Positions 1 to 64,000 of a stretch of DNA of 64,000 nucleotides are shown in pieces. The notes under the pieces were generated by a model. It ran no database searches and was not told the DNA's origin. It saw only the letters and a program-made list of their open reading frames with translations. The stretch's first letter is position 1; every line of letters starts with the position of its first letter. Position numbers and translations under genes: made by a program. This DNA is from Lophium mytilinum (Eukaryota): contig MU004197.1 in NCBI GenBank assembly GCA_010093605.1, positions 124,001 through 188,000 on the forward strand, read 5' to 3'.

Positions 1-2458
1 GCCACCATTAGCGGCATCACCGTTGTCCTCAGGCTCTGTCAACTCCCCTGCGTCATCAACTGCGCCTTCAGCCACGCCCATATTGCTCGTCTCGTGAACT
101 GGAGACACAGGTTGCGCAGCATTGAGAGTACTCTGGCTGGGTGGGGTGGTTTGCGCAACACTGTTGCTACCATCAGCGGCATTGTCGTTGTGGTCAGACT
201 CGTCTCCCTGGGGCTGTTCATCGCGAGAAACAGCATGATCGGGATGCTCATCCTCTGCATTGGAGTCCAGGCCTTGATGTAGCCGGTCGTCTTCAGGGGG
301 AAATCCGGAAGAACCGGAATTAGAATTGACCTCGACCGTGTCTTCCTTCTCCGCGGAAGCCCCATGTGACTGTTCCGGGTCGCCAATGTTCTGCTGCGCT
401 GCTCCAAGGTCACCACTATGGCTTGCCTCCATATGGGGGCGCTCGAAGGCGGCCAATGCTTCAGCAACCTGCTGGGAAACCTGCTGGGAAACCTGCTGGG
501 AAATCTGTTGAGCCACGGTAGCACTCAAGAAGGTCTGGAACTCGTGACTGCATAAGCGCTCATCGACAGCAGCCTTGATATCGCGAGCGCGGTTCGCATC
601 AGCTTGCTCAAGAAACGCATCAAGTTGGGCTACTGCAGCATTGGTCTTGGCAAACTCCTCTCCTACCATCTTCCAAGCAGCGTCGAGTTTTTGCTTCTGT
701 TCCAGGTCTTGGGACACGATATCGTCTATCCGCTTGTTTAGTGACAGAGCTGATAGCGACGCTTTCTTGATGTCGGCGCGAAGGGCCGAGATGCACGTCG
801 ACCCACTTGAGACGCTTGTTTCGTTCAACTTGGAGACATTCTCGTTGAGTGACTTTGTGGTATTTTGGAGCTCTTGCATGCCTTTGCGCAGAATGCCAAT
901 CTTGCTGGTGTGGTCGTTAGATTTCTCTTGGAGCGTGTCGACTTCTTCTCGTCCGAACGATGGCCTCGCGATTTGCTTCTTCAGATCTGAGACGTCTTTT
1001 CGGAGTGATGTGAACTTCTTTGACCCTTCCTTGATGCACTTGCGCTCCAAGTCACGGACTTCCCAAGAGATACTGTCCATGCGCGTAGTCATCTTGTTCG
1101 CAGCTTCGGTGGCAGCCTGATCAACTTCCTTGGCAGTCTCATCACCCTTCTTAACCATGTCTTTCGCTTCCGCGACATCAGCTTTAGCCTCCGAAGCATC
1201 CTTTGCCGTCTTCCTGACCAAGGTCTCCAGAGTCTTAAAGGAATTGTGTTCATGCAGGTGATTCTTGTGAATGAAACCCGCGCTGACCTCGCCCAGGTCT
1301 TTCCGGATGGAGCGTTGATGGTCCTCCAAAGAACCGAAGCGGTCGTCTAAGCTAGTAAAGCCACCTATGCCCAGATGGTGTCGGTGTGTTGGGTTTGCGG
1401 CAACGGCGACTTCATCAGCGATTCTTTTGTAGTTCCACTCCTCGTTGCCGTGTAAGAGCTCTTCCACCTCACTTGTCCGTTGTTCCACCTCAGTGATCCG
1501 GTCTTCCACCTCTTCCAGAGTATGTTGTCTTGCCGGGAAAAACTTGGTATGGGGGTCGGCATCGTGCGCGTGCATATGGCGGGATCGGGAAGGTATGTAA
1601 CTGAGGATGCGTCCCAACTCAGCTCTCTTGGCGCGGCGTTCTTGACGGGCCTTCTCACGTTCCAAACGGACCTCTTCGTCTTTGGGGTCGATTTTGCTAT
1701 AGTGTTGTTAGCAATTGCATGCTTCTGTGACGCTTATGAAGTACAGTGACAGGCCGCAAGTCTAGGCACACCAGTACGCCACTGCTTGGGGTACACCCAG
1801 AGGATCTCGAAGACTCAAGGGCAATGTCAAGCTTCAAGCAGTGCAGATTAGACTGCCTCTTGACCAATTGCCTGCTCAGCAGCCAGGGCACTCCTCACGG
1901 TGACGTTGAGTGGTCAAGCTGGAGCCGAGCTGCAATGAGTCCGTGTGCCCAGACTTGTAGCCCAAGACCGTACCACATATCGAAGGGAGTTCCATGGTGA
2001 GTAAATGAATCGGCGGGACTCACCGGGGAGCATAGAGAATCCGTGCGGCGGCTTCGGTACCTGGTCCTCCCTGCGCAATCCGGGCTTCAATCTTTTGAAG
2101 ACAGTCCTCATACTTTTTCTTGTTTGCAACAAGATCCGCCTCAGCGTCTGCAGCTTTCTTCTGTTGTCTGGCTAGTCTCGACTGCAGAACGCGAACATGC
2201 CGTGCCGAGGATTCTTCCGCCCTTTTGACAACGGCGGCAGAGTGAGCAAGCATGGCTTGGAATTCGGGCCTACGCCAGTGTTAGCAAAACGTGTGCGGTG
2301 TACACCTTTGGGTCGATGGACACTTCAAAGAGCTTTGGGGAAGGGGGAGAAAAGGGTCTGTAGACTTACCACATAGCTGAATGAGGTCTTTCCGTGAGGG
2401 GAGAGACGTTTGCAGGTCCGGGACCAGCTTGCCGCTGTCCTGGGAGAGCAGATGCCAT
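1..2458 (-). CDS. G1: array-type coiled-coil/low-complexity protein, 3' end runs off the window (exons 2458-2370, 2269-2024, 1696-<1)
   Basis: ATG at 2458 (MASALPGQRQ...). Introns 2369-2270 (GTAAGT..GCTAAC..TAG) and 2023-1697 (GTGAGT..GCTAAC..TAG) join exons in frame (SAMW|PEF, YAPR|KIDPK). The frame continues to position 1 with heptad-rich segments resembling G3's coiled coil. Family membership is inferred because the C-terminus is not visible. Confidence 0.75.
1780..1960 (-). repeat. Copy of the ~163-bp intergenic repeat family inside G1 intron 2
   Basis: TTAGACTGCCTCTTGAC...GGGCACTCCTCACGGTG...GAGTGGTCAAGCTGGAGC matches the units at 3040-4130. Confidence 0.65.
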
Positions 2459-2924
2459 CTTGCGGGGTGAGCTGACCAAGCTCGGTGAAGTCCAGCAGTT
2501 TCAATAGTCAACAAGGGCACGAAGTAGGAGTGTGCAACACTACAGACGTGATATAGGTTGGTGAGAGATGGATGATTGTGTCGTGCTGGAGAGTGGTGGA
2601 GTCGAAAGAGTCTGTGGGCGGCGACGCAGAGAAGTAAGTGGACGAGACTTGTCGCCAAGAAACGGAGTGGCCAATGAGCGAGAAGCGAGAAGTGAGAAGC
2701 GAGAAGCGTAGTGGCACTTGTTGGAGATGGTGCATGGATTCGAGGCTACGTCATTAAGAACTGCGTTGAGAGGGCGGATATATATATTACGAACTCTGCT
2801 TGTACAGATTCAAAAGCACTGTAACAAGGACAATTTCAATGACGCGATAGCATAATAAGTCTTCGGACACTGGTGGAATTGATTTGTTAAGGCATGGCCA
2901 GAGATCTTGCTCCCTCGACACCGC

Positions 2925-4130
2925 TGTGAGGGGTATTCTGACCACTTGGTAGCTAGTCAGCCAAGAGGCAATCTAATCTTCACCCTAGGGAACTCATTAT
3001 GGCCCTCGAACTCTCGAGATTGACATGACTTCCCCTCTCTCGACTACGTAGTGAGTATCAGGCTACTTTTTGACGGAGGAAGTGCTTGCTAGCTCGGGTC
3101 TCCCTAACAGCGGCAACAATTAGGCAAAGATAGAGCGAAAGAATCGCGATTTCCAGGCGTCTATCTGATGTTATAGTAATATGCATGCAGGAGAGACTGT
3201 AACGGCTACGGAGTTGATATTAGACTGTCTTTTTACGGAGGAAGCACCAGCAAACGGAGGTATCCCTTACAGTGGCGTTGAACAAGCAAGACTGGATACA
3301 AAGCAATACGATATGCATATCTCTATACTAAAATAATAGCAATATACGTGTAGAAGAGGATGCAACTGCTACAGAGTGAATATTAGGCTGTCTTTTGGCG
3401 AGAGAGATCCCCTAAGCTGGGGTCTCCCTTACAGTGGCGTAGACTAAGCAAGAATAGGGATAGAGATCTAAGTGTTTAGATTTCATTCTAATACGCTGTA
3501 TGTAGAATAGGATATAAAGCCCAAGGCGGTGATTATCAGGATACATTTTAACGAAGAATACACCTATGAGCTGGGGTACTCCTCACAGTGGTGTTGATCG
3601 GTCAGGAATGGAATGAAAGCAGTGATATATCCAGTGATCGAGGTCCTGTACCAGTACGGTGTATGCGGAATAGAACGTAAAGGCTAAGGCCGTGAATATC
3701 AAGCTACCTTTCGACGAAGGAAAGATCTACTAGCTGGGGTATTCCTCACAGTGGTGTTGATTGGTTAGGAATGGAGCGAAAGCAATGAATTTTGCAGGTG
3801 TTGAAATTATGTTCCAGCACGGTGCATGCGGGGTAGGATGTAAAATCTAAGGCTCTGGATATTAGGCTACCTTTTGGCAAAGAAAATGTGTGTTTGTTGG
3901 GGCATGCCTTACACTGGTATTGATCAGTTAGTAATGGAGCGAAAGCAGTGATATATTCCAGGTATTGATATTACACTCCAGTGCTGTGCATGCGGAATAG
4001 GATGTAAGAGCTAAGGCAGTGAGTATTAGACTACCTATTGACGAAGGATATACGTCGTTGCGGGGGCAAACCTTACACTGGCATCAATCGAGCAGAATGA
4101 AGCCAGAATAGTGCTATATCTAGGTTCACT
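2925..4130 (-). repeat. Degenerate tandem array, ~7-8 units of ~163 bp
   Basis: Core GGGGTAYYCCTYACAGTGG recurs near 3097, 3258, 3419, 3573, 3736, 3899 and 4062 (spacing about 154-163 bp). Confidence 0.85.
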
Positions 4131-4274
4131 TCACAGTAACGTACCTGCAGGGTCTTTCGTAGGGCCAGGGTCACGAAAGGCGGTATTGTTCTCACGTTCT
4201 TCACGTAGTAGTTTATCAAGAAAAGCTTTCAGATCCATCATTACCAGTCCAGCTAACCCAAACTACTTGCAGCG

Positions 4275-4426
4275 GGCCCGGCACGCAACCCCCGTCTATT
4301 AGGACGGAGGTCTGCCAGCCCTCGCCCCAAACACCTGTATAGTGCGTTGTCTTAACGCGCAGCTGTCAGGCTGCGCATAGTGACTAACACTATACAGGGT
4401 TGAGACGAAGGCTGGTGTGCTTGACC
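4275..4426 (-). promoter_or_regulatory. Class A structured 3'-UTR RNA element of G2
   Basis: mRNA sense: closing stem GGUC-GCAC/GUGC-GGCC, long hairpin CCAGCCUUCGUCUC/GGGGCGAGGGCUGG with inner stem CUGUAUAGUG/CACUAUACAG and loop CUGACA, second hairpin GACCUCCGUC-CUAAUA-GACGGGGGUU. Homologous to 34381-34522 and 48059-48212. Confidence 0.75.
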
Positions 4427-4503
4427 ATGTATGAAAAGAAAAGAAAAGAAAGAAAAAGAAAAGAAAAAGAAACCACTTGCAGAACCTCATTTTCACCCGC
4501 TCA

Positions 4504-7500
4504 TCAGCCGCCCGCCGCCTCGGACCAGTCGCTCACATCGCTCGCCGCGTCGCTCAGCTCGCTCGAATCGCTATCGCTGTCCTCCTCACGAGCCATGAGA
4601 TGGGACTCGTCGCGCTCCTCGACCTCTCGCTGCTCCTCCCTCAGAGCCCTCATCTGAGCATCCCGCTCGCGACGTCGGTCGTGCACAGTCTCAGTCTGAG
4701 AAGAGCTGGCGTCAGGACTTGCTAGGTCCAAGCTGGTAGACGTCTCCGTATCGTTCTCGACGTTCGCAAGGAACGCGCGAGCTGCATTCGCCGCAGCGTC
4801 AGCCGCTTCCTCGGCGTTGTACAGCATACGTATCGCAGAGGGGGTCTTTAGATCTTTCACCGCTTCGTCGAAGACGGTTGGCCATATCTCCTGGGCGTCG
4901 GCCGACAGCTGCTCGTGGGACTCGTTCATCTTCCGCTCCAGCTCAGCCAGCTCCCGCGCCTGTATCTGCTCGGCAAGCTGTTGATCCGCCTGCTCTTGCG
5001 CTGCTTTCTGAGACGCTTCGTTCGCTGCGTGCTTTGTTTGATACGCTTCCTGGTTCTTCCTCGCCTCCTCGCGCTTCTTCAGCAGTATGGTCTTCCGCTT
5101 CTCCCACGGGTGGTTGAGCTCCTTGGCGAGGGGCTGTTGGTACGTGTCCTCCGTCCGCGACTCAACCGGTTGCTTCAGCCAGTGCTTGAAGACAACCCCT
5201 TCTCTCAGAACGCTGAACCTGATCAGCTCATCATGGGTGAACGTCTGGCCATCTCGTCGATTATGCCGCTCAAGCACCCCATAGATCTGCTTCAGCGCGT
5301 CCTCCCGCATCTGCTCCGCGTCGCACGCGAGGTCCTCGTAGTCCCCATCGTCTAGCACCAATCCGGGGATGCAGTTGTAGGCCGTGGCACTCAGGCCACG
5401 CTCTTTCAGAAAGTCCCCCACGGCATCGCGCCACAGGACCTCGTTGCCGCAATCCGTGAAAATTACGCGCTCGATGGTGTGGAGGTAGTCGCCACTGTCT
5501 GCGGAGCGAGAGTAGAACGTCTGCTCCCTCACCGTCGTGAGATCGATGAGGGTGGAGTCGGAGAGGAGGGGGAGTCCGTCTTGGGTGATGTTCTGGTTGT
5601 CGCGGTCGTAGTGGACGATCAGACGGTAGAGGACGTTCTGGCGCTCGAAGATCTGGCCGAGATCGTCCCCATCCCGCATATCCGGTGGAGGTGGCGGGCG
5701 GGTTGGCTGGTTGGCGGGGTCGGTGAAGACCCTAGGGATGAGGCGGGGGTGTAGGACTAGGTAGGTGGATCGGGGTCCCGATATAGACGGCGGAGACGGC
5801 GACGTGTGGGGAGCCTGGATATTGGCAGTTGGCGCCACTCCAACAGTCGCAGCTGGTTGGAAAACAGGCGGGGATTGTGCTGCCATCTGAGGAGCATCGA
5901 CCTGCTCACCCTCATCTGAAGCCTCGGTGACCTCTTCAGCTTCGCCCATAGGCGAATCAGCCCGAGGAACGATAGGCTCTGGAGCAGGGGTAGCAGCCAC
6001 TGGCGTCAATCCGGCAACGCCAACGCGCGGGAAAAGGGCCTCCAGACTCGGGTCAATAGCCGAATTATCGACCGTTCCCTGGTCTCTATCGGGCGTAGGT
6101 GGCTCCCTGCCTTCAGCCATGTTCGAATCTGCGCTGAAGTCAAAGCTATACAGAGGGGCTCTCAATGCCTCTTGAGGTGCGACAAATGGTTGCAACGCAG
6201 GATCAGATCTAGAAGCCTGTGCCGTATCCACCGGATCAGGGCCCCGAGGAGCATCTGCAGCTTCGCCCATCTCGATATTGGCTCCGTAAATGCCGTCTGG
6301 GCGCGCGTTCCACGGATCAATCCGGTCCCCCCTGGGCTCGCTATCCTGCTGGAAAGCGGGAGCAGACGGAGGTGCCATATGAAAGCCGAAATTGGCAGTG
6401 GGAGGATTGAACCCGAAAATTGGGCTGGGTTGCTGTACCGGTTGCTGAGGCACAAAAGGCACTGGAGCTTGCCTAGCCACTACAGGAGAGGGGGATGGAA
6501 CCGTGAAGCTAAAGCTGTCCGCGTTGAACATGTTTGGCTGAAAGCCATTGGAATGGAAAGCATTCGGCGACACCTGTGGATGGAAGGAGGAGAACACAGA
6601 AGCTGGAGTGGTGGACCCGGGCGGTGGGAGTTGCATAGACGGAGAGAAGACCTGCGAGAAGCTCAGGGCGCTGGGGGGACTCGCCGCATGCTGCAGGGGC
6701 GCAAAATTGGCGGGAGCCTGGCTGCGATCTGGAAGCTGAGGCTGGTTGAACACAGGGGGCTGGAAGCTATTCAAGGTATCGGCAGCTGCGCCTAGATCAG
6801 AGCTTGGAAATGGTGCTGCAGTAGCGGGCAGGAGAGTAGGCGCAGGGCCTCCAGACGGCGGTAGGACAACACCAGTAGTGTCAGAGACCAAGGCAGATTC
6901 CGCATGTTCCTGACCAGCGTGATCGATAGCTTCTTCAAATCCAGCGCCTACCAACAGCAGCGTGGCTGAGGGTCCGTCAGCCGAGGGGGGTCCTCCTGAC
7001 GGTGCGATGGTACCGGCAGCGGAGCTAGGCACGAAAGCCAGATCTGGAAGCTCCTGGGCAACAGCCTTGACACCATCGCTTGTATCAGGAGTTGCGGGGA
7101 GTGAAGTGGACGGCGCTGCGTTAGTAGATGGAGGACTTCCTGACGGCGCGATGACCTTGGCAAGAAAGCCAAACACAGAGAACTGATCTGACTGCTCCTG
7201 AACAGCCTGAGAGATAGGCTCGCTTGAATCACCATCTGGTGATGGAGTGGCGGCGGAGGTTGGGATGGAAAATGGAGGTCCTTCAGAAGGTGCAATGACA
7301 GCGTCAGCAGAGTCTGACACGATGGTGAGATCTGAATCCTCTAGGCTATTGACTTTGGCGGCATCGCCAGAATCAGACTCCGGGGACTGAGATTGAGTAG
7401 AGTCCAAAAGAGGAGAGTGAAGGCCGTCGGACGGTGCGATCATAGTGGCAGCGGAACCCGACGCAATGGTGCGATCTGTCTGCTCTTGGCTTCTGGTCTC

Positions 7501-9259
7501 AACTGCACCATTTGAATCAGACTCCGCCGACTGAGATGTGACAGAGTTCGGAGGATGAAATCGAGGACCGTCAGACGGTGTCGTGACTACGATAACAGGC
7601 GCGGAAACCGACACGAGATTTGAACGGTCCTCCATAACCTCCTTGAAGACCGGCTTGGAAACACGACTACTGATTCGGAGCTTGCCGTTGAAGTCCTTCA
7701 CCAAAGCTTTAACGTCGAATCTCGCGCGGCCAGTCTGAAGCGCCATATCCGATGTAGCTTCTCGTAGCATAGACACCGGAGTGGAAGTAGCCACGACCTT
7801 TCCAGAGCGCTGTCCAGTGATGGCTGCTCCGGCACCGCTATCAGGTTCATCAGCCGAGTCATCCGATTCGTCTGAATCGTCGCTGTCAGAACCATTGAAC
7901 TTGAATTCCTTAGGATCGAAGTGGAATTGTGTGCGCTCTCCTTTGTCTGAGATGCGATCCTCTGATTGTGCATCTGAACCGATCCCTTCGTCATCTGTGT
8001 CCCGCCTGGAGCCACTATACCTCTTAAGGTCATTCACAGTGGTTTCCAGATCGAGAACCCGTTGGCTCAACTTTATGTCTTCCCTATTGCGGGCGTCTAG
8101 ATCGATACGCAACATCTTTACAGTACTCTTAGTACTGAACATCTTCTTGTTATCCTCATCCATATGTATTAGAACTGGATGCTTCAACGAGAAATCCATC
8201 TTCTTGAGATAGCCGCTCTTGACACCTTTTAGTTCTGCCAGGAGTTTGGCGTTTTCTTTCGTCAAGTTTTTGACTTCTCCCTCGAGCTCCGCTACGGCAT
8301 TTTCTGCGGCGCCTTGCTTGACACCTTGATCGAAGCTCCGCGTGGTCAAGTTCTTAATCTTCGCTTCCAGCGTTGCAACTTCCGCCTCATGCTGAAGATG
8401 AATAGGCTTGAAAAGTTCTTCGAAGATTTCTTTGATACGATCATCTGTCACGTGGTTTGTAGCTTGGTTGGTGTCTACTGAAGTATCCACCTCGAGCTTG
8501 ATGTAAGATGAAGAATTGGGACCGGTGCGAGCAGAATCATCTTGGAGAGAGTCCAGGGTTCGTACTGGTGGAAGAGGAGGGACAGATTGAGAAGGAGAGG
8601 CTAAGTGAAGGGGATAGACCAAGTGAGGCGAAGATGCCGGGTGAGGAGGATGGGCTAAGAGGTGAGGAGCTTGGACTACATTGGGATCTGCGAGGTGTGC
8701 ATCGCGGTGAAATCGTGCGCGCAAGCCTTTCCAAATGCGGTGCGCACTGAGAGCTAGCAAAACCCCGAGGATGAGGGTGAGAAAGAGCCATAGAAGCTGG
8801 TGAATTATCGAACGCTCTGCCGATGCAGGCGAGAATGTCCGATTTGAGCTCGATGTAAACGTAGAGTTGTCTTGCATAGGAGCTTAGAAAAGAGTGGGTC
8901 AGCGACGTCCTCATCTATACGAAAGTGAAAAGACTTACGCGTATCAGAAGCGGCCTTTACAGAATCCCACGCCTGTTGCTCTGAGATAGTGAGGTAAATC
9001 GGAGGCGGGTTGTACCGGATAGAAGCTTGGAAAAGAGAAGGTCAGCGACGTCCCCATCCATGCGAGAGTGAATAGACTTACGAGTATCAGGTGCAGACTT
9101 GACAGGGTCCGACACCTCGTGCTCCGAGATAGTGAGGTATATCGGGCGCGGATTGTACCAGATAGTAGCTTTACCAGCGTGAACGAGTATCCGCAGGAGG
9201 ACGTCGATGACATTGTAGCCTGTCTGGATGAGGGCATGGGCGGCCATGTTCGTGGCCAT
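4504..9259 (-). CDS. G2: array-family protein, ~1547 aa (N-terminal TM helix, coiled coil, IAPSxG repeats, FxF-rich region, two KIX-like repeats)
   Basis: 1457-aa ORF extended by exons 9259-9082 and 9025-8939 through 56-nt introns 9081-9026 and 8938-8883 (GTAAGT..GCTGAC..AAG), frame preserved. TM segment LLWLFLTLILGVLLALSA. Confidence 0.85.
8883..9165 (-). repeat. Tandem duplication of a 143-nt exon+intron unit in G2
   Basis: Exons encode YNPRPIYLTISEHEVSDPVKSAPDT and YNPPPIYLTISEQQAWDSVKAASDT, each followed by a closely similar 56-nt intron. Confidence 0.85.
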
Positions 9260-9569: not shown

Positions 9570-11136
9570 GTAACCTGGCCAAAAAGACATGTTGCGAGAT
9601 ACACGTCATCGGCCATACGGGAGACACGGAGTCACGTGTCAAGATGCTTATGCGGCAGTGAAAATGATACCGCTATATTTATCTGTCTTGTTAAGATCCC
9701 TCTAGAGCCACTGGTGTCGCTGCTTGTTGGGGTGCAAGATTTGGCTTTAGCTGGAGATACAGCAACAGCGGGAAGATGAGGAAGACGAAACAAGGCTGGG
9801 TAGGAAGATGGCAAGGGGCTGAGCGACGGCGACATGGTACATTAGTTATAGAGGAAATGGACCAAAGAATGCTAGCCCCTTCGTCAATGATGGTCGCTCC
9901 GGAGCCGCTATCTAGAATTCCATGATCGTCCTCATCGTCTTAGGCATCCTCGGTCCTCGTATAGTCCTCTTCAGGCTTGTCTTGCTTGCCTGCCTAGGCT
10001 CCTGGCCAGCTCCCTTACCTCACCCACAACTCTGTTGTTCTCTCTGATGTACCGGCGCTCTTGACTCTCCGGTTCTTCGTCGTAGCTACGAGACCGAAGC
10101 GCGTGGTTTTGCGCAAGCTCTTCCCTGTGACCAGTGAGATACTTGAAGATTCGCACTATTATCCCAGTGTAACACATTTGCTCCAACTTGATCTCCCCAT
10201 TGATCTCCCCGTTTGCTGCGCTTTGTTCGAAAAGATCCTTTCGAGGAACCATCCGTCAATGTCTTTGCGGGACTCATTTTTGAAATTTGCAAGCGTGCCA
10301 ATACAATATAGTTGGCGCTTGAGACGAGAAAAGGGAAGTTCTCCAGCCATGCCTCACACCCCCAGACATGAGTGAAATTCGGGCAAAGGCAAAGATAGGC
10401 AAGAGACACAAACGTAGGGATAGGGTGGTAGTAATGAGAGGCCTAACATAAATATCTATACCTTTCCTAGCATTGGATCAACTCTACATGTTGGTTTGTG
10501 TCCACCTTTATCGATAAGAACCAGCCAATAAGGTCTAGCCGCTTAATTTAACGATTGGCCAAGAATTGCTTACGTAACAACCCAACACACTAACGTGCGA
10601 AGGAATACGGCAGGACACTAGGATCTTTTACGAATGCACGTTTTTCTCCGACCATTATTCCATCCCTGCTAGGTGCTACATTTTCTGAACTCGAAGCAGT
10701 AGATATCTGGAACTGTTTTGCCTAACTAAGGGCGTGCTGGCTGTGGCACCCCTAACAGCGGTGTCAATTATGCAAGAGTAGAGCCCGGGCAGTGAGATGT
10801 CTGTGGGCCCCAATATAAGGTATAGTACTATACTGGATCCGCACCATTAGTGAAGGGTAATTACGCAGCAGCATCGATAGCAGTCGAACAGCGCTAGTCA
10901 AGTCACATACTCAGCATTGCACCGTGGTGTTTTTATTTGTTTTTGTATTTTCTCATCCTCTAGAATACTGGGGCCTCCCAGACACCGCTCAACCCCGTCC
11001 ATCAGGACAGACACCCCATGACCATATGCAGTATGCCCATCGCAAAACACCAATATCTGCTTGCAAATTCAAACGCACCCAACTCGCACTCCAAATCGCA
11101 CCTGAGACTCAGCCACCGAAACCCAAAACTATAAGA

Positions 11137-11395
11137 CAAACCCGAACACCGGCTAGCCAGAGCACCGGGGAATACAAGAAATCTTCTTCTGCAAGAGGTG
11201 TCCGCAGTACTGCGTTCAAAACCTCTCATAGTATCGGAACTCCAAGTTTCCCCATTTTTGATTTTGTGGTGTAGTGTCCGGAATGCCACAACCCCTTCCT
11301 CTCCGAGTGATGTCCGCAACATTGCGTTCAAAATCGCTTGAAGAGTCAGGAGTCTGCCGGACGGTTGGCATATGTTGGGTGTAGGTGTTGGGGAT
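11137..11395 (-). promoter_or_regulatory. Class B structured 3'-UTR RNA element of G3
   Basis: Closing CCCCAACACC/GGUGUUCGGG, stem GUCCGG/CCGGAC, and two UUUUGAACGCA-N3/4-UGCGGAC hairpins. Preceded in mRNA sense by an A-rich tract (11413-11510). Confidence 0.7.
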
Positions 11396-11587
11396 TATTA
11401 GTCTTCTAGGCTCTTTTTTGTTTTGTTTTTTTGTTGTTTTTTACTTTTTGTCAGTTGTTTTTGTTTTTTTTTGTTTTTTGTTCTGTTTTTGTTGTTTGTT
11501 TCGTTTTTGGTGGTGTGTGTTGGGCTGCGCAATCGCATAATTCTCTCCATCGCCCTCGGAGCACTACATTCGGCCCCGCTTCTTCGT

Positions 11588-20270: not shown

Positions 20271-20280
20271 CCGTCTCTTC

Positions 20281-40600: not shown

Positions 40601-40640
40601 TGAGCCAGCTCAGGGGGGTATACGCTCCGAGAGCAGACAT
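34660..40640 (-). CDS. G7: array-family protein, ~1975 aa (TM, poly-Pro/GPP tract, RATQ motif, coiled coil, CxxH..CxxC, Nup50-like motif, one KIX-like repeat)
   Basis: CCACCATG at 40640. Exon to 40232 and intron 40231-40179 (GTAAGT..GCTAAT..TAG) join in frame (DI|PTLR) to the 1822-aa ORF. Confidence 0.85.
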
Positions 40641-48212: not shown

Positions 48213-48325
48213 TGCGTCCCACGGGTGGCCAGAATCGACAGCAATGCAATCGCATTGTAAACAAAGATAGAACACACAAAGGAACAAAGAGAATAGAATC
48301 GACCTCATCCACCAGTCACGTCCTC

Positions 48326-57310: not shown

Positions 57311-58109
57311 TGTTTGGAGTTTCCGCTATGGCGGACTTGGAAGAAAGCACCCGTTGGTTTTGTTCGCGGAAAAGCTCCACGATTATTTAAGAAGACAGTT
57401 CTGTTACCGGGCATAGCATACTGTTTTGTATTTCAAGGGCGTTTTCGTCTCAAGAGGTGAGATTGATGATGTGACGACGCGACGTGCGATCCCTGCTCGG
57501 AGCGTAAGCGCCGTTTCTCCGGCTGCTTTCGATCTCAACGTCATTCCATCCCACCCCACCCATCCCAGCCATCAACTCCACACACCAATGAGACCTGCTG
57601 ATTAGTAGGCGACCTTAGACAGACCAAAACTCTATGCGCACTCGTTTACCACTGCTAGGGGTGCCGCCATGGGGCGACCACAATGTAGGCATCATGTCAA
57701 GCTTTCGAGAGCGTAAGCTAAGCTCCTTCTTGACTAAGAGGTATCCTCGCGATGGAGCTGCCCCTGACAGTGGCATCCGGCTTGCAAAAGCGGCCGGACA
57801 AAGCTCTATTGTCAGAGTCCTTCTTTGTTAGCTAGGCGTGTTGATCGTTCCCTTTGTTCTCTACTCCACTGATCGAATGCTTAAGACAGCCTGCTTTATT
57901 TAGAAGACACAAAGAAACAATGCACTAGAACTATGCCTGAAACAGGCCAGCGGGCTCAAATATCTGTACAACAATCTACAATTGAATAACATTGACTATT
58001 CCAGCAGCATCCCACAATCCTCGGAAAGTAATCATTTTAATCTCCACAGCAGCAGCATCGATACCTCATTAATTGCACAGAACTTCCGCCGTAGAGCCCA
58101 CCGCTCGTC

Positions 58110-61100
58110 ATGCCACCAGCCCGATCCATCAGGGAATGGTTCCACGACGAGATCATCATCGGCTATCTCAACTTCTATTATCGAATCTATTTCTGCGCTC
58201 TCCATCCACTGACATGCACCGTAGAGACCATTCAGTCGCTTATACATAGTTACTGGGACGGTCTCCAAATCATGCAGAGTGGTTTTCAAGGGCTCCGCAA
58301 TCTGGCCACAGTTGGAGAAAACGAGCATACACCCCCGACGACATTTCTTGAGGATATCTTCGCGGAGGACAGTACTACAGCATATGAATCCGCAGCCCCT
58401 TACTCCGCGTCTACTTTGACCTATATTGACATTTCAACTGACGACATGGGCGTGGAAACCCATTTCTTCAGCGACGAGGACGTTCCAACTTGCACCCCAG
58501 GACTTAGGTGTACCACCGATGTGCTCACTAGCAACGGATTTGCAGGATTTTCGAAATCTGCTGCGTCGCTTTTGAGCGCCACCCCTTTAGCAAACATCGC
58601 TTCTTCTCTCACAACCACCAACAGCAACCCCACTACTCTCCAAACCGCGATAACGACGTCTACCAGCAGCGTCCCTGCCTCCAATCTGACAGGCGGCTTC
58701 TTCGAGCTTGTAAACGACAAGCTAGTTGCGGGATGGACGCTTGGGCACAACTTTGTTTCTGCGATGTTTCGAGGCCTAGTTCTGATTTTCGGCAACTTCT
58801 TCTCCCTGACACACAATTTCCTACGCTCAGCGATTGTAGCTATTGTTACACCTATAAGCAATAAGTTGCTGGAGTGTCGGGCTATCTTTTATGGACTCTT
58901 GTCCTGCATTCGCCGGGGCTGGTTCTCCTGTGAAGGCTTTGTAGAATGCGTGGGAAATTGCATTATTTCAACGTGGCGTAAGATCAAACCATGCGAGGGC
59001 TGGGACGGGTGTAAGTGGTGGATCATGGATCCTCCCTCAAAAGCGCTCTTATTCGCAGCCTTGTTGTTCGTCTCACTTGTTACAATCTTCTATTGGTACT
59101 TAGACAAGTATGAGAGGCGATCCTTGGGGAAATTTGCGCAACCTCCTTTCACTGGCGGTAACCGAAAGGGTGCAGGCAGGAGCGGTAGAGGTGGCGGAGG
59201 CGGCGGCGACGACGGTGGAAATGACAAGAAAGACGGCAAAGACGACGACAATAAACCTGCTCCACACGATCACCCTGCGCCTGAGTCAAGTACCACGTCA
59301 CCTCCTCCAATTCCTGGGTCGACAGTTCCCGCTGGCCAACCTACTGGACCTGCAAATACCAACAAAAGACAAATCAACGGCTCCCAACCCAGCGGACGAC
59401 AAGGCAAAGATATCATAGTAGCTCTTAGAGACATCAACGAACGCTTAAGAAGGGTTGAAAACGCCGGGTCTTCGAAGGCACAAACGGACCTTAAAGCAGT
59501 CAAAGAGCTGGAAGCGAGACTACAACGCATGGTGACCATGTCTAGCAACCCAGCCCAACATGGTGCGGTCAACGTCAATGACGCTGAATATATCAGATCT
59601 CTTGAAGAAAGGGTTCAAGAGCTTGAAAATCCCACTGGTCAGGCCCACTTAGACGAACTTCGGAGCATAGCAGACGCAAAGGACCGCTTTGACCGAAACG
59701 TCGAAGCCAAGCTCGCTGAGATCAAGGCTACAGTCAACGAAGCTAATGAACAGTTCCATCGGCATCGCATGGCTAAAGACCAGCAAAACAAAGAGGAAAG
59801 GGAGAGAGTTGTGGAACTTATCGAAGAGAAGATGAAGGAGGCCAGGGAGGAGTTAGAATCCGAGATCGCCGAGTCAATTGCTAAGTTAGGCAGTGCGCTT
59901 ACATCAACTGTGGCGAGATCAATTGAGGTAACGAACCAGGAGCAGACTCGACCGCTCCGTGAAGAGACCCAAAAAACGGCGGAGAACTTCGTGGCGGCTA
60001 AGAAAGCAAGCGATGAGGCCACCGCTGATATACTGAGAATTAGCAACGGTTTTCAGGACGTACAAAGCCAACTTTTGAGCATGTCTCGGTCTCTTGGGAA
60101 GAACCCCGGTGCAACGACTGTTCCGTCAAACGGTACCATCCAAAGATCAAACTCAAAGGCGGAGCCAAAGGTGGAGCCAAAGGCAGAGCCATCCGGGGCG
60201 GTCCCGAAGAAGGTACTCAAGTATGACGGGCTCTCGCCAAAGCCTGACTACCCCAGAACACCCAAACAGCCCACCGACGCATCCAAGCCAACAATCAAGA
60301 ACTCCGCTGGCAAGAAGAAATCTGAACCAACAACCTGGGCCCCTGTTTCGTCCAGCACAACTTCGCAAGTTAGTATTCCCGTCGCTGCACCGCCTGAAAA
60401 GCCGTTCACGGACCCCATGCCCACCCAAGAACCAGTCACTGAAAATACAAGCAGCTCAGGCACTAATCCGGCAGTATCGACCAAGACCGATGGAGGCGTA
60501 GAGGCGAAGCCCATGCCATCCACACCGATAGACCAAACTGTCAAGGATGATAAGGATGGCATCCAATTGGCAACGCCAACGGGCATTACCGGCGTTTCGC
60601 AGCCTGGATTGAAGCCGAAAGTTGAGTCCGTTGAAAGCGTAAAGTCGAAGCCGGCGCCATCCGCACCGGTCGACCAGACTGTCAAAGATGATAAGGATGG
60701 TATCCAATCCACGAAACCAAATGGCATTACCAGCGTCTCGCAGCCTGAATCGAAGCCGAAAGTTGAGTTCGTTGGAAGCGTAAATTCGAAGACGGCGCCA
60801 TCCCCGACGATCGATCAGACTGTCAAAAAGGGTAAGAATAACACCCAACTTGCAAAGCCGACAGACACGTCCAGAATCTCGCCTCTTGTAGCGGCCCCGA
60901 AAATTAGCACAAGTGCAACTGCTCCAACCGCCGCTGGTAAGGTTCCGAGTAAAAAGGGCAAGCGAGAGCCACCGCCTCCGCCATTCCTAACCGCATTGCC
61001 TCCTTTAAACCCATTCGCCCCACCTCCCGTCACTGCGAGTCGAGTGGGTGGTTTTGATCCGAAAGCTCACGAGGAGGCTTTGGCAAGTGGCAAGATCGAT

Positions 61101-64000
61101 TTCGGAGCCGGTGGCATGGGCAAATTCTTCCCGGTGAAGAAAGAGACAGAACGAGAAAAGCGGCGGACCCCCACAGCACCCGTTGCCACGCCGAGCCTAT
61201 TGCCATTTGTTCCCAGTTCAGATCCTTCAAGCAACACTAACCACCCCCCAGTCTCATCTACCTTTTTGTGGCAGGTGCCCAAGGCTGACCCTCCCCGTAG
61301 CAACGATGGACCTAAGGCCCCGACAGGACGGGAGGATGTGACTATGGGGGAAGCGAAGGCGGAGGTGTTACAACAACCATCAGGGCCACCATCGTTAGGA
61401 AGTTCAGTGTGGGGACCGTTCTCAGGAGCTGGTCCCATGCCGGTCCATATCAACTCTTATCAGCCGCCGGGCCCAGATTCCGTACCCTCATTTCCGCCCA
61501 AAGAACACTTAGCATCGTCAGGAGATCGCATGGAAGAATCTGGCCAAGATTACCAGAACGAGGTAGCACAGCGTGAAGCACTGCTACAAGCGCGAAAAGA
61601 AGCAGACGCACAGCTACTAGCACAGCAAGAAGCGCAAGCACAGCTATTGGCACAAGTACAGCCACAACAATTGGCAGAGGAACAATTACGACTGCAGGCA
61701 CAAAATCAAACGCAATCAATCAACAACCCGCCCTTGAATTTGAGCCAAATATGGCAGGGGCTTCAAACAAAGCAGCTGCCACAAGGTCCAGCGGGAGCTA
61801 GTGTAACGGGACATTACCCTCAAAGGCCTCAACCAGGATCCAATGACGTGGATATGGCAGACGTCGACGGTGTTCAAATACAGGCTGTTGGGCCTCTTGA
61901 GGCGCTGCAGGACGAACCGGGAACTTCAGATACGGTCAATGGTACCATCGACCCTGATTCGAAACTTTCGCCCATGCAGTCGTCATTTGCTTCGCTTCAA
62001 GCCCGACCAGAAGAGCCTCTAAAAGCTCTTTTGATCAACAAGGTACCAGAGCCGGCATACATGAACCACGCGCTTAGTACTTTTCGACACCGTATCACAC
62101 AGATCGTCAAGCACTATAACGACACGTATAGGGACTTCAAGGATTCGGAGGGGCTGGCCGTCAATCTTGACGATATCATCATGCAATTCGTGGATTCCTG
62201 GCTCAAAGCAATTGCCTTGGAGGCCAACGGGCAGGACGAGCCTTTTAGGGTGATTGAGCACCGAGGCGCGCAAGTTCTGCATCATCTCTCGACAGCCACC
62301 AAAAGCGAATGGGCTGTAATGGTTTTTGAATACACGTCGTCAGGCGGTGAAGTTATCTTGCCAGCTTTAGACACCCCTATAATGACACAAGGCGGCGGCG
62401 TAAACACTGGTTCGGACCCTGGCGTGGCGACGGGCATTGGCCCTGTGGGTGGACAAAGAGGATTTGTTGCGACTGACGACGAAGTCAAAATGCATGGCGA
62501 GGGAATGGAGCGTAATGGGATACACTATTCCAACTGGGTCCTCCAGGGAAATGACGCTCTTTTCCAACATGTCAGCAATAGATATTACGACGAACTCGAA
62601 CGGCTTGTATTATCTAAGAATGACCAGCACCGAGAGCTGGTTGATCGCCAGGGTAGGCCGCTCAACTTGGACATGATGGGCTCGTCCTTTATGCTAAAAC
62701 TTCTTGACGACATCGCCCACAGAGCAGTCAAAGGCAACGAGCTCCCCAGTATTAAAGCCGACGCAAACGCAATATGTCGGAGAATTGAGCGGATGGGCGC
62801 TACTGAGTGGCAGGCAACGCTGCAGGACTTTGTTGATAGAACTGGCGCGAGGAAGCTTCCGGATATGCCTGATTCTGTTCAGGCGGAAAAGCAAGCGGAA
62901 GTGCCTCAAACTCCCAAAACATCCTCAAAGAACACTTCCACGCCGAAGGCCAGACCGCCTCCGACTGGCACCTTGTTCAAGCATGAAGCCAAACCAGTTT
63001 ACCGCAGTCATGCCCACAAAAAAAGTGGCAACGCTCTCAAAAAGATCGCCAAGGAAAAGAACAAGCTGTTTCGAGTTCCTGGCTTAGGAGAAACGGGTGC
63101 TCTGAACCTAGATGGCATGGAAGATAGTTTTGTCGATTTCCTCTGTGACACGATTGCAATGCAAGCCAAGGGCAAGAACGTATTCGAAAATCAATTCGAG
63201 GAGGTTGAGGCAAGGGGCTACCAGATGGTAAGGGAATTAAAAGATTCTAGCGCCGAACAGTGGGCCGCGTGGGTGCAAAGATACCACGACCGCCTTCTCG
63301 TCGCTCCAGCATCTTCTGGTTTACGCCCTGTGCAAATTCAAGGATCATTCGCGAAGAATGAGACTGAGGAAAACATGCGAGCAGTGTACTTCCCCCGTCT
63401 CCTTGCCTTGGTGAAATCTAAGAACGAACAATACCAAGGGCAAGTCGATAGCTTCGGCAGACCACGAAGCATTCATGCCAAAGAGTTCAACCGTATGGCA
63501 AAGCTGATTCTCGACCGGATAACGACAAGGGTACAGCAAAATGGATCCGCAGACTATAAGAGCAATGCGGACAACGTCATCCAAGAGTACGAAGAAGACG
63601 AGGGCGGCCACAGCTGGGAAGGCTTGTTACGAGGTCTTCGCGCCCCACAAAATCAGCGTCCAAGCATCATATCACCGGCAACACCCACAGCACTTGCAAC
63701 CCCGTCTACGCCCCTATCTAATTCCAACAATCCATACCCCACTCACTCAGGAAACTGGCAGACGGAGGCCAGCCGCACGCACCAAGCCAACGCAATCGCT
63801 CAAAAGTACAAAGGCTATGTCGACACATCTGCGTCGGGTGACGACGCGCTTGTTGACTTCTGCAAAGTCGTCGAGGGACAGGCCTTCAAGCGCGCTAACG
63901 GCTCCTACGATGGCTACAAATTCGAAGTGAAGAAGGCACTGAACAGCGCTGCTGAAAAGGTGCGCAACATGTGGCAAAAGGAGCGTATTAAACAGACCGA
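58110..64000 (+). CDS. G10: array-family protein, >1960 aa, runs off the window (TM, coiled coil, 47-aa repeats, four long helical repeats and one KIX-like domain)
   Basis: ATG at 58110 (MPPARSIREWF...ALHP, compare G4 ALHP). No stop found in the stretches translated, and absence from the ORF track fits a frame running off the end. TM segment ALLFAALLFVSLVTIFYWYL. KIX-like NWQ..SR..LVDFCKVVEGQAFKRANGSYDGY at 63750-63960. Confidence 0.8.
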   Translation, partial: MPPARSIREWFHDEIIIGYLNFYYRIYFCALHPLTCTVETIQSLIHSYWDGLQIMQSGFQGLRNLATVGENEHTPPTTFLEDIFAEDSTTAYESAAPYSASTLTYIDISTDDMGVETHFFSDEDVPTCTPGLRCTTDVLTSNGFAGFSKSAASLLSATPLANIASSLTTTNSNPTTLQTAITTSTSSVPASNLTGGFFELVNDKLVAGWTLGHNFVSAMFRGLVLIFGNFFSLTHNFLRSAIVAIVTPISNKLLECRAIFYGLLSCIRRGWFSCEGFVECVGNCIISTWRKIKPCEGWDGCKWWIMDPPSKALLFAALLFVSLVTIFYWYLDKYERRSLGKFAQPPFTGGNRKGAGRSGRGGGGGGDDGGNDKKDGKDDDNKPAPHDHPAPESSTTSPPPIPGSTVPAGQPTGPANTNKRQINGSQPSGRQGKDIIVALRDINERLRRVENAGSSKAQTDLKAVKELEARLQRMVTMSSNPAQHGAVNVNDAEYIRSLEERVQELENPTGQAHLDELRSIADAKDRFDRNVEAKLAEIKATVNEANEQFHRHRMAKDQQNKEERERVVELIEEKMKEAREELESEIAESIAKLGSALTSTVARSIEVTNQEQTRPLREETQKTAENFVAAKKASDEATADILRISNGFQDVQSQLLSMSRSLGKNPGATTVPSNGTIQRSNSKAEPKVEPKAEPSGAVPKKVLKYDGLSPKPDYPRTPKQPTDASKPTIKNSAGKKKSEPTTWAPVSSSTTSQVSIPVAAPPEKPFTDPMPTQEPVTENTSSSGTNPAVSTKTDGGVEAKPMPSTPIDQTVKDDKDGIQLATPTGITGVSQPGLKPKVESVESVKSKPAPSAPVDQTVKDDKDGIQSTKPNGITSVSQPESKPKVEFVGSVNSKTAPSPTIDQTVKKGKNNTQLAKPTDTSRISPLVAAPKISTSATAPTAAGKVPSKKGKREPPPPPFLTALPPLNPFAPPPVTASRVGGFDPKAHEEALASGKIDFGAGGMGKFFPVKKETEREKRRTPTAPVATPSLLPFVPSSDPSSNTNHPPVSSTFLWQVPKADPPRSNDGPKAPTGREDVTMGEAKAEVLQQPSGPPSLGSSVWGPFSGAGPMPVHINSYQPPGPDSVPSFPPKEHLASSGDRMEESGQDYQNEVAQREALLQARKEADAQLLAQQEAQAQLLAQVQPQQLAEEQLRLQAQNQTQSINNPPLNLSQIWQGLQTKQLPQGPAGASVTGHYPQRPQPGSNDVDMADVDGVQIQAVGPLEALQDEPGTSDTVNGTIDPDSKLSPMQSSFASLQARPEEPLKALLINKVPEPAYMNHALSTFRHRITQIVKHYNDTYRDFKDSEGLAVNLDDIIMQFVDSWLKAIALEANGQDEPFRVIEHRGAQVLHHLSTATKSEWAVMVFEYTSSGGEVILPALDTPIMTQGGGVNTGSDPGVATGIGPVGGQRGFVATDDEVKMHGEGMERNGIHYSNWVLQGNDALFQHVSNRYYDELERLVLSKNDQHRELVDRQGRPLNLDMMGSSFMLKLLDDIAHRAVKGNELPSIKADANAICRRIERMGATEWQATLQDFVDRTGARKLPDMPDSVQAEKQAEVPQTPKTSSKNTSTPKARPPPTGTLFKHEAKPVYRSHAHKKSGNALKKIAKEKNKLFRVPGLGETGALNLDGMEDSFVDFLCDTIAMQAKGKNVFENQFEEVEARGYQMVRELKDSSAEQWAAWVQRYHDRLLVAPASSGLRPVQIQGSFAKNETEENMRAVYFPRLLALVKSKNEQYQGQVDSFGRPRSIHAKEFNRMAKLILDRITTRVQQNGSADYKSNADNVIQEYEEDEGGHSWEGLLRGLRAPQNQRPSIISPATPTALATPSTPLSNSNNPYPTHSGNWQTEASRTHQANAIAQKYKGYVDTSASGDDALVDFCKVVEGQAFKRANGSYDGYKFEVKKALNSAAEKVRNMWQKERIKQT
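60500..60860 (+). repeat. 141-nt (47-aa) coding tandem repeat in G10, ~2.5 copies
   Basis: GAYCARACTGTCAA recurs at 60531, 60672 and 60813 (DQTVKDDKDGIQ...). Confidence 0.85.

Follow-up and report, generated by a model that had tools for sequence, protein, structure and literature searches.

How can large genes that stand side by side share one design when their proteins can hardly be aligned with each other? This question is raised by a 64-kb stretch of DNA from the wood fungus Lophium mytilinum, the whole of which we call the window. An earlier note, made from the letters of the sequence, had described it as a tandem array of ten hyper-divergent paralogues. Ten large genes (A to I, and L) lie in the window, and eight of them are arranged head-to-tail on the minus strand. 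On sequence comparison, at least eight (B to I) are related genes, which appear to encode very long, mostly disordered and often membrane-anchored proteins. A RhoGEF-like gene is a neighbour of the cluster. The genes and their main parts are as follows.

1..2458, minus: gene A, partial, its C-terminus off the window; an ORF (1-1665) plus putative upstream exons read from the DNA
4507..9247, minus: gene B, annotated protein P0005, 1543 aa, TM helix at aa 110-128
9026-9081 and 8883-8938, minus: the two phase-1 introns of B
5386-5667 and 5026-5343, minus: the two C-terminal modules of B
11591..18882, minus: gene C, model from this analysis, 2412 aa, TM helix at aa 166-184
18606-18882, minus: exon 1 of C
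18550-18605, minus: phase-1 intron of C
12194-12541, minus: the one clear C-terminal module of C (a weak second at about 12968-13222)
20284..21814, minus: gene D, model from this analysis, 492 aa, with a TM-like helix and a heptad segment and without a C-terminal module
21480-21534, minus: phase-1 intron of D
26245..30881, minus: gene E, annotated protein P0003, 1514 aa, without a TM helix
30710-30804, minus: single annotated intron of E, phase 2
27514-27846, 26932-27276 and 26506-26847, minus: the three C-terminal modules of E
31523..32965, plus: gene F, P0001, 468 aa, soluble
31811-32131, 32171-32479 and 32495-32812, plus: the three modules that make up F
34663..40640, minus: gene G, model from this analysis, 1975 aa, TM helix at aa 166-184, polyproline tract
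40179-40231, minus: phase-1 intron of G
34663-34956, minus: single C-terminal module of G
42511..46740, minus: gene H, model from this analysis, 1391 aa, with an N-terminal motif in common with B
46338-46394, minus: in-frame 57-nt phase-1 intron of H
42511-42801, minus: single C-terminal module of H
48329..53217, minus: gene I, P0004, 1607 aa, first exon of 11 aa, TM helix at aa 23-51
about 53119-53183, minus: phase-1 intron of I
49205-49519 and 48785-49099, minus: the two modules of I
58110..64000, plus: gene L, partial, with a TM-like helix (aa 313-331), a heptad segment and a disordered middle
62064-62378, 62532-62864, 63009-63314 and 63360-63656, plus: L's own repeats, at least four

One RNA run from the same species (X1), compared with positions 40001-60000, has two contigs of low depth on gene I; the 5' end of G, the whole of H and the 5' end of L are without cover in this run, which says nothing about their expression.

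The gene cluster and its C-terminal module

The coding sequences are almost unalignable, just as the earlier note had it. Only two pairs of the 10 gene models match at E <= 0.01 in an all-against-all phmmer comparison (C with D at the N-terminus, and I with F at the C-terminus), BLASTP between the ORFs gives short C-terminal matches only, and self-blastn of the window gives no CDS-CDS match between loci. RIP is not supported as the cause of the coding divergence, because the coding regions lack RIP-like indices.

Seven of the genes (B, C, E, F, G, H and I) have in common a C-terminal module of about 100 amino acids, with the motif that had been read from the sequence beforehand (R-x3-L-x2-[ILF]..N..L-x3-A-x3-E..Y); the C-terminal repeat occurs in 14 copies across eight ORFs. 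Among 13 copies of the module, R12 and E47 are invariant, and L16, N27 and Y68 are conserved in at least 90%. The earlier note had named profile comparison as the check on mutual homology, and its outcome is significant in seven of the eight genes: leave-one-gene-out HMMs, searched against the 1273 six-frame ORFs of the window, recover these genes with E-values from 2.9e-6 to 4.3e-16 and report no ORF outside the family. Gene D belongs to the family through the similarity of its N-terminal exon to that of C and through the 3' element that they have in common.

The other two genes stand apart. The repeats of L are missed by the leave-one-gene-out profile, and hhalign does not join them to the family module either (E 0.13). 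They have the same predicted four-helix fold as the module; the likeness of L to the family is one of architecture and predicted fold, without detectable homology. Gene A contains disordered and coiled-coil stretches; all-against-all phmmer and BLASTP find nothing homologous to it among the other genes, and its membership of the family is unproven. A first exon common to A and E (similar start, phase-2 intron) was considered and has no BLASTP support. The count of ten paralogues is in this way reduced to eight, plus L by fold and architecture.

Gene architecture and relatives in a sister genus

The N-terminal exon is separated from the TM helix by a GT..AG intron of phase 1 in B (which has two), C, D, G, H and I; all seven of these introns, in six genes, are in phase 1, and the spliced frames are open. 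This part of the proposed common layout applies to those six genes but not to E, with its phase-2 intron and no TM helix. The N-terminal exons themselves are of at least two types. Those of C and D are homologous (E 2e-17, and 2e-22 in the phmmer comparison of gene models) and B and H have a similar N-terminal motif (E 5e-4), but hhalign joins no C/D-type exon to a B/H-type exon (E 0.42), so the single N-terminal module that had been proposed must be given up. A Pfam scan of the N-terminal exons found nothing above cut-off.

TM-like helices are predicted in B, C, D, G, I and L, and none in A, E or F; the hydrophobic segment of H is below the threshold used. On the C-terminal side of the TM helix the net charge amounts to +1 to +6, and these basic residues would put most of each protein on the cytosolic or nucleoplasmic side. 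The long disordered middle that had been noted is well seen in the eight large proteins, in which hydrophobic-poor regions make up 42-73% of residues (32% in D and 20% in F). The coiled coil has a more limited distribution than had been claimed, since a crude heptad test was positive in five of the 10 proteins and negative in the remainder. We also saw basic NLS-like clusters in the translations, judged by eye, and acidic tails with aromatic residues (W/F/Y) in B, C and I.

Among 1.84e9 representative proteins, 10 were found at E <= 0.001, and nine of these are from Lophium or Mytilinidion, as assigned by name (P0001, P0002, P0008 and P0011) or because they match the window or the models built from it. 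Within the reach of HMMER, the family seems limited to these two genera of Mytilinidiaceae; a search of metagenome contigs with F as the query gave 167 pattern matches and no relatives. Orthologues in the sister genus are only 29-60% identical, which would be compatible with fast evolution. One further soluble member that consists of modules only, P0008, is encoded elsewhere on the same contig. In P0010, a protein of Mytilinidion, the middle matches E and the C-terminal half matches C, and N-terminal type and 3' type do not co-vary (H combines the N-terminal motif of B with the 3' element seen in C, D and E). Such mosaics suggest recombination between copies.

Structured 3' elements and other intergenic DNA

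All four blastn matches between loci are non-coding, with 70-78% identity, and by this comparison the 3' non-coding parts are better conserved than the coding parts at the DNA level. The earlier note had described one structured 3' element; such structured elements do occur, but they are of two different kinds.

11104..11421, minus: type-1 element of C, an A-rich tract and then hairpin units
19963-20267 (D), 25807-26090 (E) and 42141-42409 (H): other type-1 copies
4231..4439, minus: type-2 element of B, multi-hairpin, about 200 nt, behind a CT-rich tract
34332-34526 (G) and 48011-48213 (I): other type-2 copies

Within the 64 kb, all seven main profile matches are behind family genes, in the sense of the gene, and start about 17-155 nt past the stop codon; the type-1 profile has one extra weak match, in the 3' region of G (34044-34151, E 3.3e-5). 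There are six type-1 hairpin units in total. Pairing extends to 95% of cells in the type-1 hairpin, and seven pairs have changed on both sides, compared with 3.4 in shuffles, with a covariation score that none of 500 shuffles reached, the structure having been predicted on the same alignment that was used for the pair counts. For type 2, three of 60 pairs have changed on both sides, which is thin because there are only three copies. The type-2 element folds with -103.5 kcal/mol in the sense strand (z -7.9) and -80.8 kcal/mol in the antisense strand (z -4.2), and its shape is that of several hairpins within an outer stem and not of a simple terminal inverted repeat. The many G-U pairs in the 3' elements point to a strand-specific fold. 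Rfam has no match at gathering score, and at E <= 1 one unrelated snoRNA match elsewhere.

Upstream of the genes the picture is different: the best 8-mers occur in four of the 10 upstream regions, a level that 17 of 100 shuffles equal, so the short upstream motif of the earlier note is not confirmed. Its statement that the non-coding parts are more constrained than the proteins is supported for the 3' parts but not for the promoter motif.

A further repeat of 160 nt recurs between genes.

2905..4127, plus: array of the 160-nt intergenic repeat
1740-1969, 10679-10834, 25096-25611 and 31240-31331: further copies, first set
33684-33835, 41019-41951, 47442-47602 and 57692-57787: further copies, second set

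It has 23 nhmmer matches, 19 on the plus and four on the minus strand, includes tandem arrays, and has no conserved structure (three predicted pairs only). One copy is within the putative intron of A, and it may be a plain dispersed repeat. The gap between D and E has RIP-like dinucleotide indices.

These features bear on an alternative that denies the conserved non-coding segments a function as RNA: they would be mobile elements or satellites, or would owe their similarity to gene conversion among neighbouring copies. The 160-nt repeat, present on both strands, arrayed in tandem, lacking a consensus structure and inserted in A's putative intron, agrees with such an origin, as do the RIP-like indices of the D-E gap; the mosaic modules agree with gene conversion, by which short segments could stay alike without selection. 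We nevertheless regard this alternative as unlikely. A mobile element would be expected at unrelated sites in either orientation, and across the 64 kb the 3' elements do not behave in that way: the seven main matches lie just past family stop codons in gene sense, and the only other one is the weak type-1 match in G's 3' region. Their strand-specific fold, the compensatory changes above the level of shuffles, and the type-2 arrangement of a hairpin set inside an outer stem also argue against it.

Predicted fold, possible roles and known systems

AlphaFold2 models of the family module (pLDDT 82) and of the L repeats (pLDDT 89) were made from alignments without detectable mutual similarity, and the module is predicted to be a four-helix bundle. 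The top structural match of both models is domain II of TFIIS in PHF3, and the next fold matches of both are TFIIS, the Bye1 TLD, RECQL5 IRI and Gal11 KIX. This match to a TFIIS domain II or KIX fold, at Z 5.7-8.6, is not decisive, because such values are common by chance for helical bundles. Foldseek found no match in the PDB at E <= 0.001, the best E-value in a search of PDB sequences with the module profile was 0.41, and the ESM Atlas had no usable match for F. Pfam gave no family at its cut-off for 12 ORFs; when 13 repeats were searched singly at E <= 10 it gave seven unrelated families, one repeat each, with neither TFIIS_M nor KIX among them. No such family is described in the portions of the literature consulted, on this species and on TFIIS-like or KIX domains combined with a membrane anchor. 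The earlier remark that the layout fits no described family agrees with the results from Pfam, PDB sequences and Rfam.

We think it fairly probable that the locus is a tandem-duplicated family of two genera that encodes long-reach membrane tethers, with structured 3'-UTR elements under selection. The cluster would have grown by tandem duplication and by exchange of modules between copies. The plan would consist of a short exon, a phase-1 intron and a signal-anchor TM helix, then a proline-rich or helical stalk and a disordered tether of about 700-1400 aa with gene-specific tandem repeats, and finally one to three copies of the four-helix module of about 100 aa and a charged tail. Anchored members may present a binding module of TFIIS-domain-II/KIX type at the end of the tether, and the soluble members (F and P0008) may act as free versions of it. 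Each mRNA would bear one of the two 3'-UTR elements, which selection would keep because of shared post-transcriptional control (of localisation, decay or translation), while the mostly disordered coding sequence would drift or diversify fast. Taken as a whole, the earlier observations stand for the cluster, the module, the introns and the 3' elements but not for a single N-terminal module or an upstream motif, and their interpretation as a multigene system of real paralogues on a common plan survives without the number ten, the single N-terminal module and the promoter motif.

That interpretation also took the proteins to be possible nuclear-envelope factors, here read as ones of the inner nuclear membrane, on which conflict, allorecognition or control of developmental stage would exert diversifying selection. 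A match of G, and only G, to the Pfam NUP50 family falls in this direction, although at 19.6 bits (E 0.0014) it is below the gathering score of 22.5; so do the NLS-like clusters, the nuclear nature of the best-matching folds, which bind RNA polymerase II or activators, and a combination of TM helix and long linker as in Heh1/Heh2. However, no LEM, SUN, KASH or nucleoporin family is found at the Pfam cut-off, and no HET or NACHT type domain occurs in these proteins. The low orthologue identities are compatible with diversifying selection, but relaxed constraint also predicts fast change in disordered regions. We consider this reading improbable.

Still less probable is that the proteins are membrane-tethered transcription regulators, from which proteolysis frees a C-terminal part (basic clusters, helical-bundle modules and an acidic tail with W/F/Y) that goes to the nucleus. 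The TM anchor with its cytosolic orientation, the TFIIS-II/KIX-like predicted fold, the acidic aromatic tails of B, C and I, and the soluble paralogues made of modules only would all suit such regulators, but there is no DNA-binding domain and the fold match is not decisive. We see as a long shot, a little behind these regulators, the combination in which inner-nuclear-membrane tethers keep RNA polymerase II or activators at the periphery of the nucleus, with soluble competitors and 3'-UTR zipcodes. A basic import signal and a very long disordered linker would carry the C-terminal end through the pore, arrays of TFIIS-II/KIX-like modules would hold the polymerase or activators in competition with F-type paralogues, and two classes of structured zipcode would set where and when each mRNA is used; if true, this would be a lineage-specific, fast-diversifying gene-positioning system with its own RNA regulon. 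Finally, that the resemblance is an artefact of low complexity or disorder and not of one family, as the near-empty pairwise searches and the failure of sequence to join L and A to the others might suggest, is hardly credible and for B to I is refuted, by profiles of the ordered module that are significant in seven genes with no outside match, by intron phase and position conserved in six genes, by 3' elements common to seven, and by the C/D N-terminal exon.

If the preferred reading, of long-reach tethers with selected 3'-UTR elements, holds, the locus contributes a protein module and two structured 3'-UTR elements that have not been described before. It would be a natural case in which RNA structure is kept among paralogues while their coding sequence diverges past DNA alignment, and a handy system for studying selection on 3'-UTR structure and the evolution of disordered tethers after tandem duplication. 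Should the module function as TFIIS domain II or KIX does, arrays of it anchored in a membrane would provide a novel means of positioning transcription machinery or activators there; otherwise, the locus is a clearly defined orphan family from a fungal lineage that has received little study.

Among known systems, TFIIS domain II is close to the module in size and is likewise a helical bundle. The family module matches it with Z 8.6 (PHF3), 7.0 (Bye1) and 6.6-6.7 (TFIIS), and the L repeat with Z 7.8 (PHF3), 7.5 and 7.2 (TFIIS) and 7.3 (Bye1), at an rmsd of 2.7-3.0 over 85-90 residues. In contrast to TFIIS proteins, the Lophium proteins lack zinc ribbon, PHD and SPOC partner domains and carry one to three copies of the module at the end of a disordered, membrane-anchored chain. 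The match to RECQL5 IRI (Z 8.3, rmsd 2.8 for the family module) recurs for L. The KIX matches of the module are Gal11 (Z 7.5), CBP (6.4) and ARC105 (5.7, with 25% identity), and those of the L repeat are Gal11 (6.3) and CBP (5.4). KIX and the module seem similarly spaced in their conserved positions, with R/L in an early helix, A..E in a middle one and E/D-Y in a late one, but the module model has a fourth helix, and it has no Pfam KIX match. Complex-I subunits of LYR type (NDUFA6/B14 class) reach equal structural scores (Z 6.2-8.3), but there is no Pfam match to them and the repeats here are in large proteins that do not look mitochondrial; this likeness is most likely one of generic bundle shape.

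The overall design has its own parallels. Yeast Heh1 and Heh2 reach the inner nuclear membrane by means of a TM helix and a long disordered linker, which sets their basic import signals apart from the TM helix. No search relates these proteins, or the fungal tethers leashin and septal-pore proteins, to the Lophium family in sequence or domains, and the order of parts in Heh1/Heh2 is reversed in the Lophium proteins, but all of them presumably follow the same design, in which a long disordered linker connects a membrane or organelle anchor with a binding domain at the end of the protein.

Relatedness of the genes

The window has a GC content of 0.44–0.58 and contains 11 ORFs of at least 250 aa, none of which reaches the cut-off for any Pfam family. 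Ten large genes were candidates for the family: A–E and G–I, arranged head to tail on the minus strand, and F and L, on the plus strand. Between I and L the cluster is broken by an unrelated gene, whose two ORFs we treat as one spliced gene because RNA contigs show introns there:

54582–57414, minus strand: RhoGEF-like gene (ORFs J and K), sub-threshold RhoGEF match (E = 1.5e-5)

The contigs show four canonical minus-strand introns inside this interval and a fifth just downstream (54468–54581), and the gene is covered at a word depth of up to 64; gene I has two contigs at a depth of about 3. The data come from a single same-species run, evidently of RNA because its contigs skip canonical introns; as these are contigs, the depths are only indicative. 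Another contig (57684–57925), spanning a partial copy of a 160-nt intergenic repeat upstream of L, skips 48 nt with non-canonical ends (GT..TG) and could represent a 5' UTR belonging to the gene on either side.

For the greater part of their length, the gene products cannot be aligned with each other. BLASTP matches among them are short and exclusively C-terminal, phmmer searches found no matches among the first 750 residues of the proteins and two pairs at E <= 0.01 among full gene models, and a self-BLASTN of the window gave no CDS–CDS matches between loci, all in agreement with an earlier note's claim that the coding sequences are nearly unalignable. RIP is not supported as the source of this divergence because the coding regions lack RIP-like indices, which occur only in the AT-rich 4.7-kb gap between D and E. 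Within this gap, the interval 21900–25000 has a GC content of 0.44–0.46, TpA/ApT of 1.22–1.28 (in the RIP-like range) and no convincing ORF; the gap also contains a 72-nt inverted repeat (23929–24000 / 24561–24632, 92% complementary).

The genes are linked mainly by a C-terminal module of about 100 residues. Its 13 aligned copies have only 12–23% identity to the first copy, with R12 and E47 invariant and L16, N27 and Y68 conserved in at least 90%. An iterated profile found 14 copies across eight ORFs. Because this profile had been built on sequences that it then detected, we rebuilt it eight times, each time withholding all the repeats of one gene. In searches of 1273 six-frame ORFs, B, C, E, F, G, H and I were each detected by a profile made without them (full-sequence E-values from 2.9e-6 to 4.3e-16), L was not, and no ORF outside the family was reported. 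The repeat proposed in the earlier note is real, both in its motif residues and in this recovery of seven genes. D has no C-terminal module; its first exon is homologous to that of C (E = 2e-17 in six frames, 2e-22 among gene models), and its 3' element is of the kind also found behind C, E and H. We therefore recognize eight related genes (B–I), fewer than the ten paralogs first claimed: L carries at least four repeats of a separate kind, which neither the profile nor hhalign (E = 0.13) joins to the family module, and A, which has no transmembrane helix and whose C-terminus lies beyond the window, has no sequence link. An apparent likeness of A to E in the first exon was dropped for want of BLASTP support.

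Exon–intron structure and protein plan

For B, E, I and F, introns were obtained by mapping annotated proteins onto the window. B has two 56-nt introns, both in phase 1: an exon and its intron were duplicated in tandem as a 143-nt unit (8866–9151, minus strand), so that the annotated protein contains a 28-aa segment twice in near-identical form. I has a single phase-1 intron behind an 11-aa exon. For four other genes, matching phase-1 introns (GT..AG) were read from the DNA:

C: 56 nt
D: 55 nt
G: 53 nt
H: 57 nt, in frame, so that the ORF runs through it

All four spliced frames are open. The seven introns of these six genes are thus all in phase 1, and every one is placed between the first exon and a hydrophobic helix. 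The proposed phase-1 intron before a transmembrane helix holds for B, C, D, G, H (where the helix is sub-threshold) and I, but not for E, whose annotated intron is in phase 2 and which has no such helix. No single N-terminal module unites the genes: at least two kinds of first exon occur, one in C and D and another in B and H (reciprocal E-values of 5e-4 and 8e-3 for B/H). The two kinds are not related by hhalign (E = 0.42), and no first exon has a Pfam match. The first exon of H contains a 21-nt tandem repeat (46540–46644, minus strand) coding a repeated 7-aa unit.

In a hydropathy scan, B, C, D, G and L each showed a single strong helix, I showed two, and A, E and F none; the hydrophobic segment of H is below threshold. 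Net charge is higher C-terminal of the helix (+1 to +6), so by the positive-inside rule most of the protein should be on the cytosol/nucleoplasm side. A coiled coil, expected in every gene, was detected by a crude heptad test in A, B, D, E and L but not in the other five. The long disordered middle was borne out: in the eight large proteins, 42–73% of residues are in hydrophobic-poor windows rich in S, T, P, G, D, E, N and Q, and these regions contain gene-specific tandem repeats (C, E, H, I and L have disordered parts with repeat units of 105–156 nt, families D4, D6, D10, D12, D14 and D17). B, E and G share an island, an acidic serine run followed by a glycine-rich motif, that is also present in Mytilinidion proteins. 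Right behind its helix, G has a polyproline/P-G-P tract of about 70 residues (39839–39931, minus strand), and at the matching position shorter stretches rich in proline occur in B and C. The last ~15 residues of D (20284–20350, minus strand) resemble a ubiquitin-interacting motif, being acidic, hydrophobic, then A and S, with what we take to be the spacing of that motif; Pfam found none in D at E <= 1.

Structured 3' elements

All four inter-locus BLASTN matches (70–78% identity) are outside coding exons, three being intergenic and one in the putative intron of A, as expected if non-coding parts are more constrained than coding ones. The window contains three kinds of non-coding element: the 160-nt repeat and two structured 3' elements, type 1 and type 2.

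Type 2 lies behind B, G and I, starting 68–137 nt past the stop codon after a CT-rich tract. It is about 200 nt long, with a mean column identity of 70%, and folds into a long imperfect hairpin and two smaller ones within an outer stem (60 pairs). The copy behind B has a folding energy of -103.5 kcal/mol in gene sense (z = -7.9) and -80.8 kcal/mol in antisense (z = -4.2). A type-2 profile has exactly three matches in the window.

Type 1 lies behind C, D, E and H, with profile matches starting 17–170 nt past the stop codon, and opens with an A-rich tract in C, E and H. Each copy has one or two hairpin units of about 80 nt (six in total). Pairing covers 95% of cells in these units, and G-U pairs are numerous when they are read in gene sense. 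Seven pairs are altered on both sides, compared to 3.4 in shuffles, and none of 500 shuffles reached the covariation score, the structure itself being a prediction made on that alignment. Matches to the whole-element profile are confined to these four sites, apart from a weak one in the 3' region of G. The tracts that come right after the stop codons, CT-rich in the type-2 genes and A-rich in C, E and H (4433–4472 and 42398–42437), are partly complementary (inverted repeat I3, 73%).

The 160-nt repeat, for which no consensus structure was found, has 23 matches in the window (19 on the plus strand), including a nine-copy block (2905–4127) with seven tandem plus-strand copies from 3032. Copies follow the 3' element of six genes (B, C, E, G, H and I) at a distance of about 100–700 nt. 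Because these genes include G, whose downstream neighbor is convergent, the repeat is not merely a promoter element belonging to the following gene. The conserved upstream motif of the earlier note was not recovered: no short motif was significant in the upstream regions.

Each of the seven 3' elements comes directly after the stop codon of a family gene and is oriented in gene sense. The elements therefore were most likely inherited along with the genes, and compared with the coding sequence they have diverged far less. The structured, conserved element first described is in fact two different ones. H has the N-terminal motif of B but a type-1 3' element, as C, D and E do, so N-terminal and 3' types do not go together, and the family copies are therefore mosaics.

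Relatives, predicted fold and comparison with known families

Searching 1.84 billion representative proteins with the module profile gave 10 matches at E <= 0.001, among them F, E, I and B themselves, one Lophium protein on the same 1.6-Mb contig outside the window, and three proteins assigned to Mytilinidion by their names or as orthologs of window genes. The matches also include a repetitive protein with twelve weak stretches, which was taken as spurious. ORF 31523–32866 (447 aa) is 99% identical to a Lophium mytilinum hypothetical protein; the sole other relative in that search was a Mytilinidion resinicola protein (P0002, 60% identity), a fourth Mytilinidion relative. Both species are Mytilinidiaceae (Dothideomycetes). 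Two of the Mytilinidion proteins are on one common 483-kb contig. Orthologs are 60% identical for F, 41% for I, 43% for the C-terminal part of C, and 38% and 29% for the two halves of B. P0010 (M. resinicola, 1581 aa) matches E in its middle (48–57% identity over 82–122 aa) and C in its C-terminal 650–700 residues (43%), which points to either recombination between copies or a merged gene model.

AlphaFold2, run on the 13-copy alignment, predicted the module as a four-helix bundle (pLDDT 82, pTM 0.71). The module had no match in a PDB sequence search and its model none at E <= 0.001 in Foldseek; a separate, independent structure search gave the following.

Fold matches of the predicted module
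PHF3 TFIIS domain II: Z 8.6
RECQL5 IRI module: Z 8.3, rmsd 2.8
Gal11 KIX: Z 7.5
Bye1 TLD: Z 7.0
TFIIS: Z 6.6–6.7
CBP KIX: Z 6.4
Complex-I accessory subunits: Z 7.1–8.3

A separate confident model of the L repeats (pLDDT 89) has PHF3, TFIIS (twice) and Bye1 as its four top matches (Z 7.2–7.8, rmsd 2.7–3.0). By the search tool's guidance, Z below about 8–13 can be chance for helical bundles, and these values are within that range; because two models from unrelated alignments agree, a TFIIS-II/KIX-like bundle is the best available description of the predicted module, and the same agreement suggests that the L repeats share its fold. At the sequence level (Pfam), membership of the TFIIS or KIX families fails.

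The family shown here is lineage-restricted and arranged in tandem; it has a common plan of exons, introns and domains, its modules are mosaic, and its 3' elements, of two types, are conserved, structured and strand-specific. The anchored members may act as membrane tethers with a long reach, presenting a binding module made of a helical bundle, of which F and the off-window Lophium protein, with two modules, would be free forms; the 3' structures could place the family under shared post-transcriptional control. The proteins may be located at the nuclear envelope, as the earlier note proposed: G has a sub-threshold NUP50 match, basic clusters were seen by eye, and the predicted fold of the module resembles nuclear domains.

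No Pfam, PDB-sequence or Rfam entry matches the family or its elements (type 1, type 2 or the 160-nt repeat), and the titles and opening parts of abstracts in our literature search describe no such family, consistent with the view that this layout belongs to no described family. It appears to be a new family assembled from familiar building blocks, of interest mainly for putative 3'-UTR structures that have outlasted the coding sequence.
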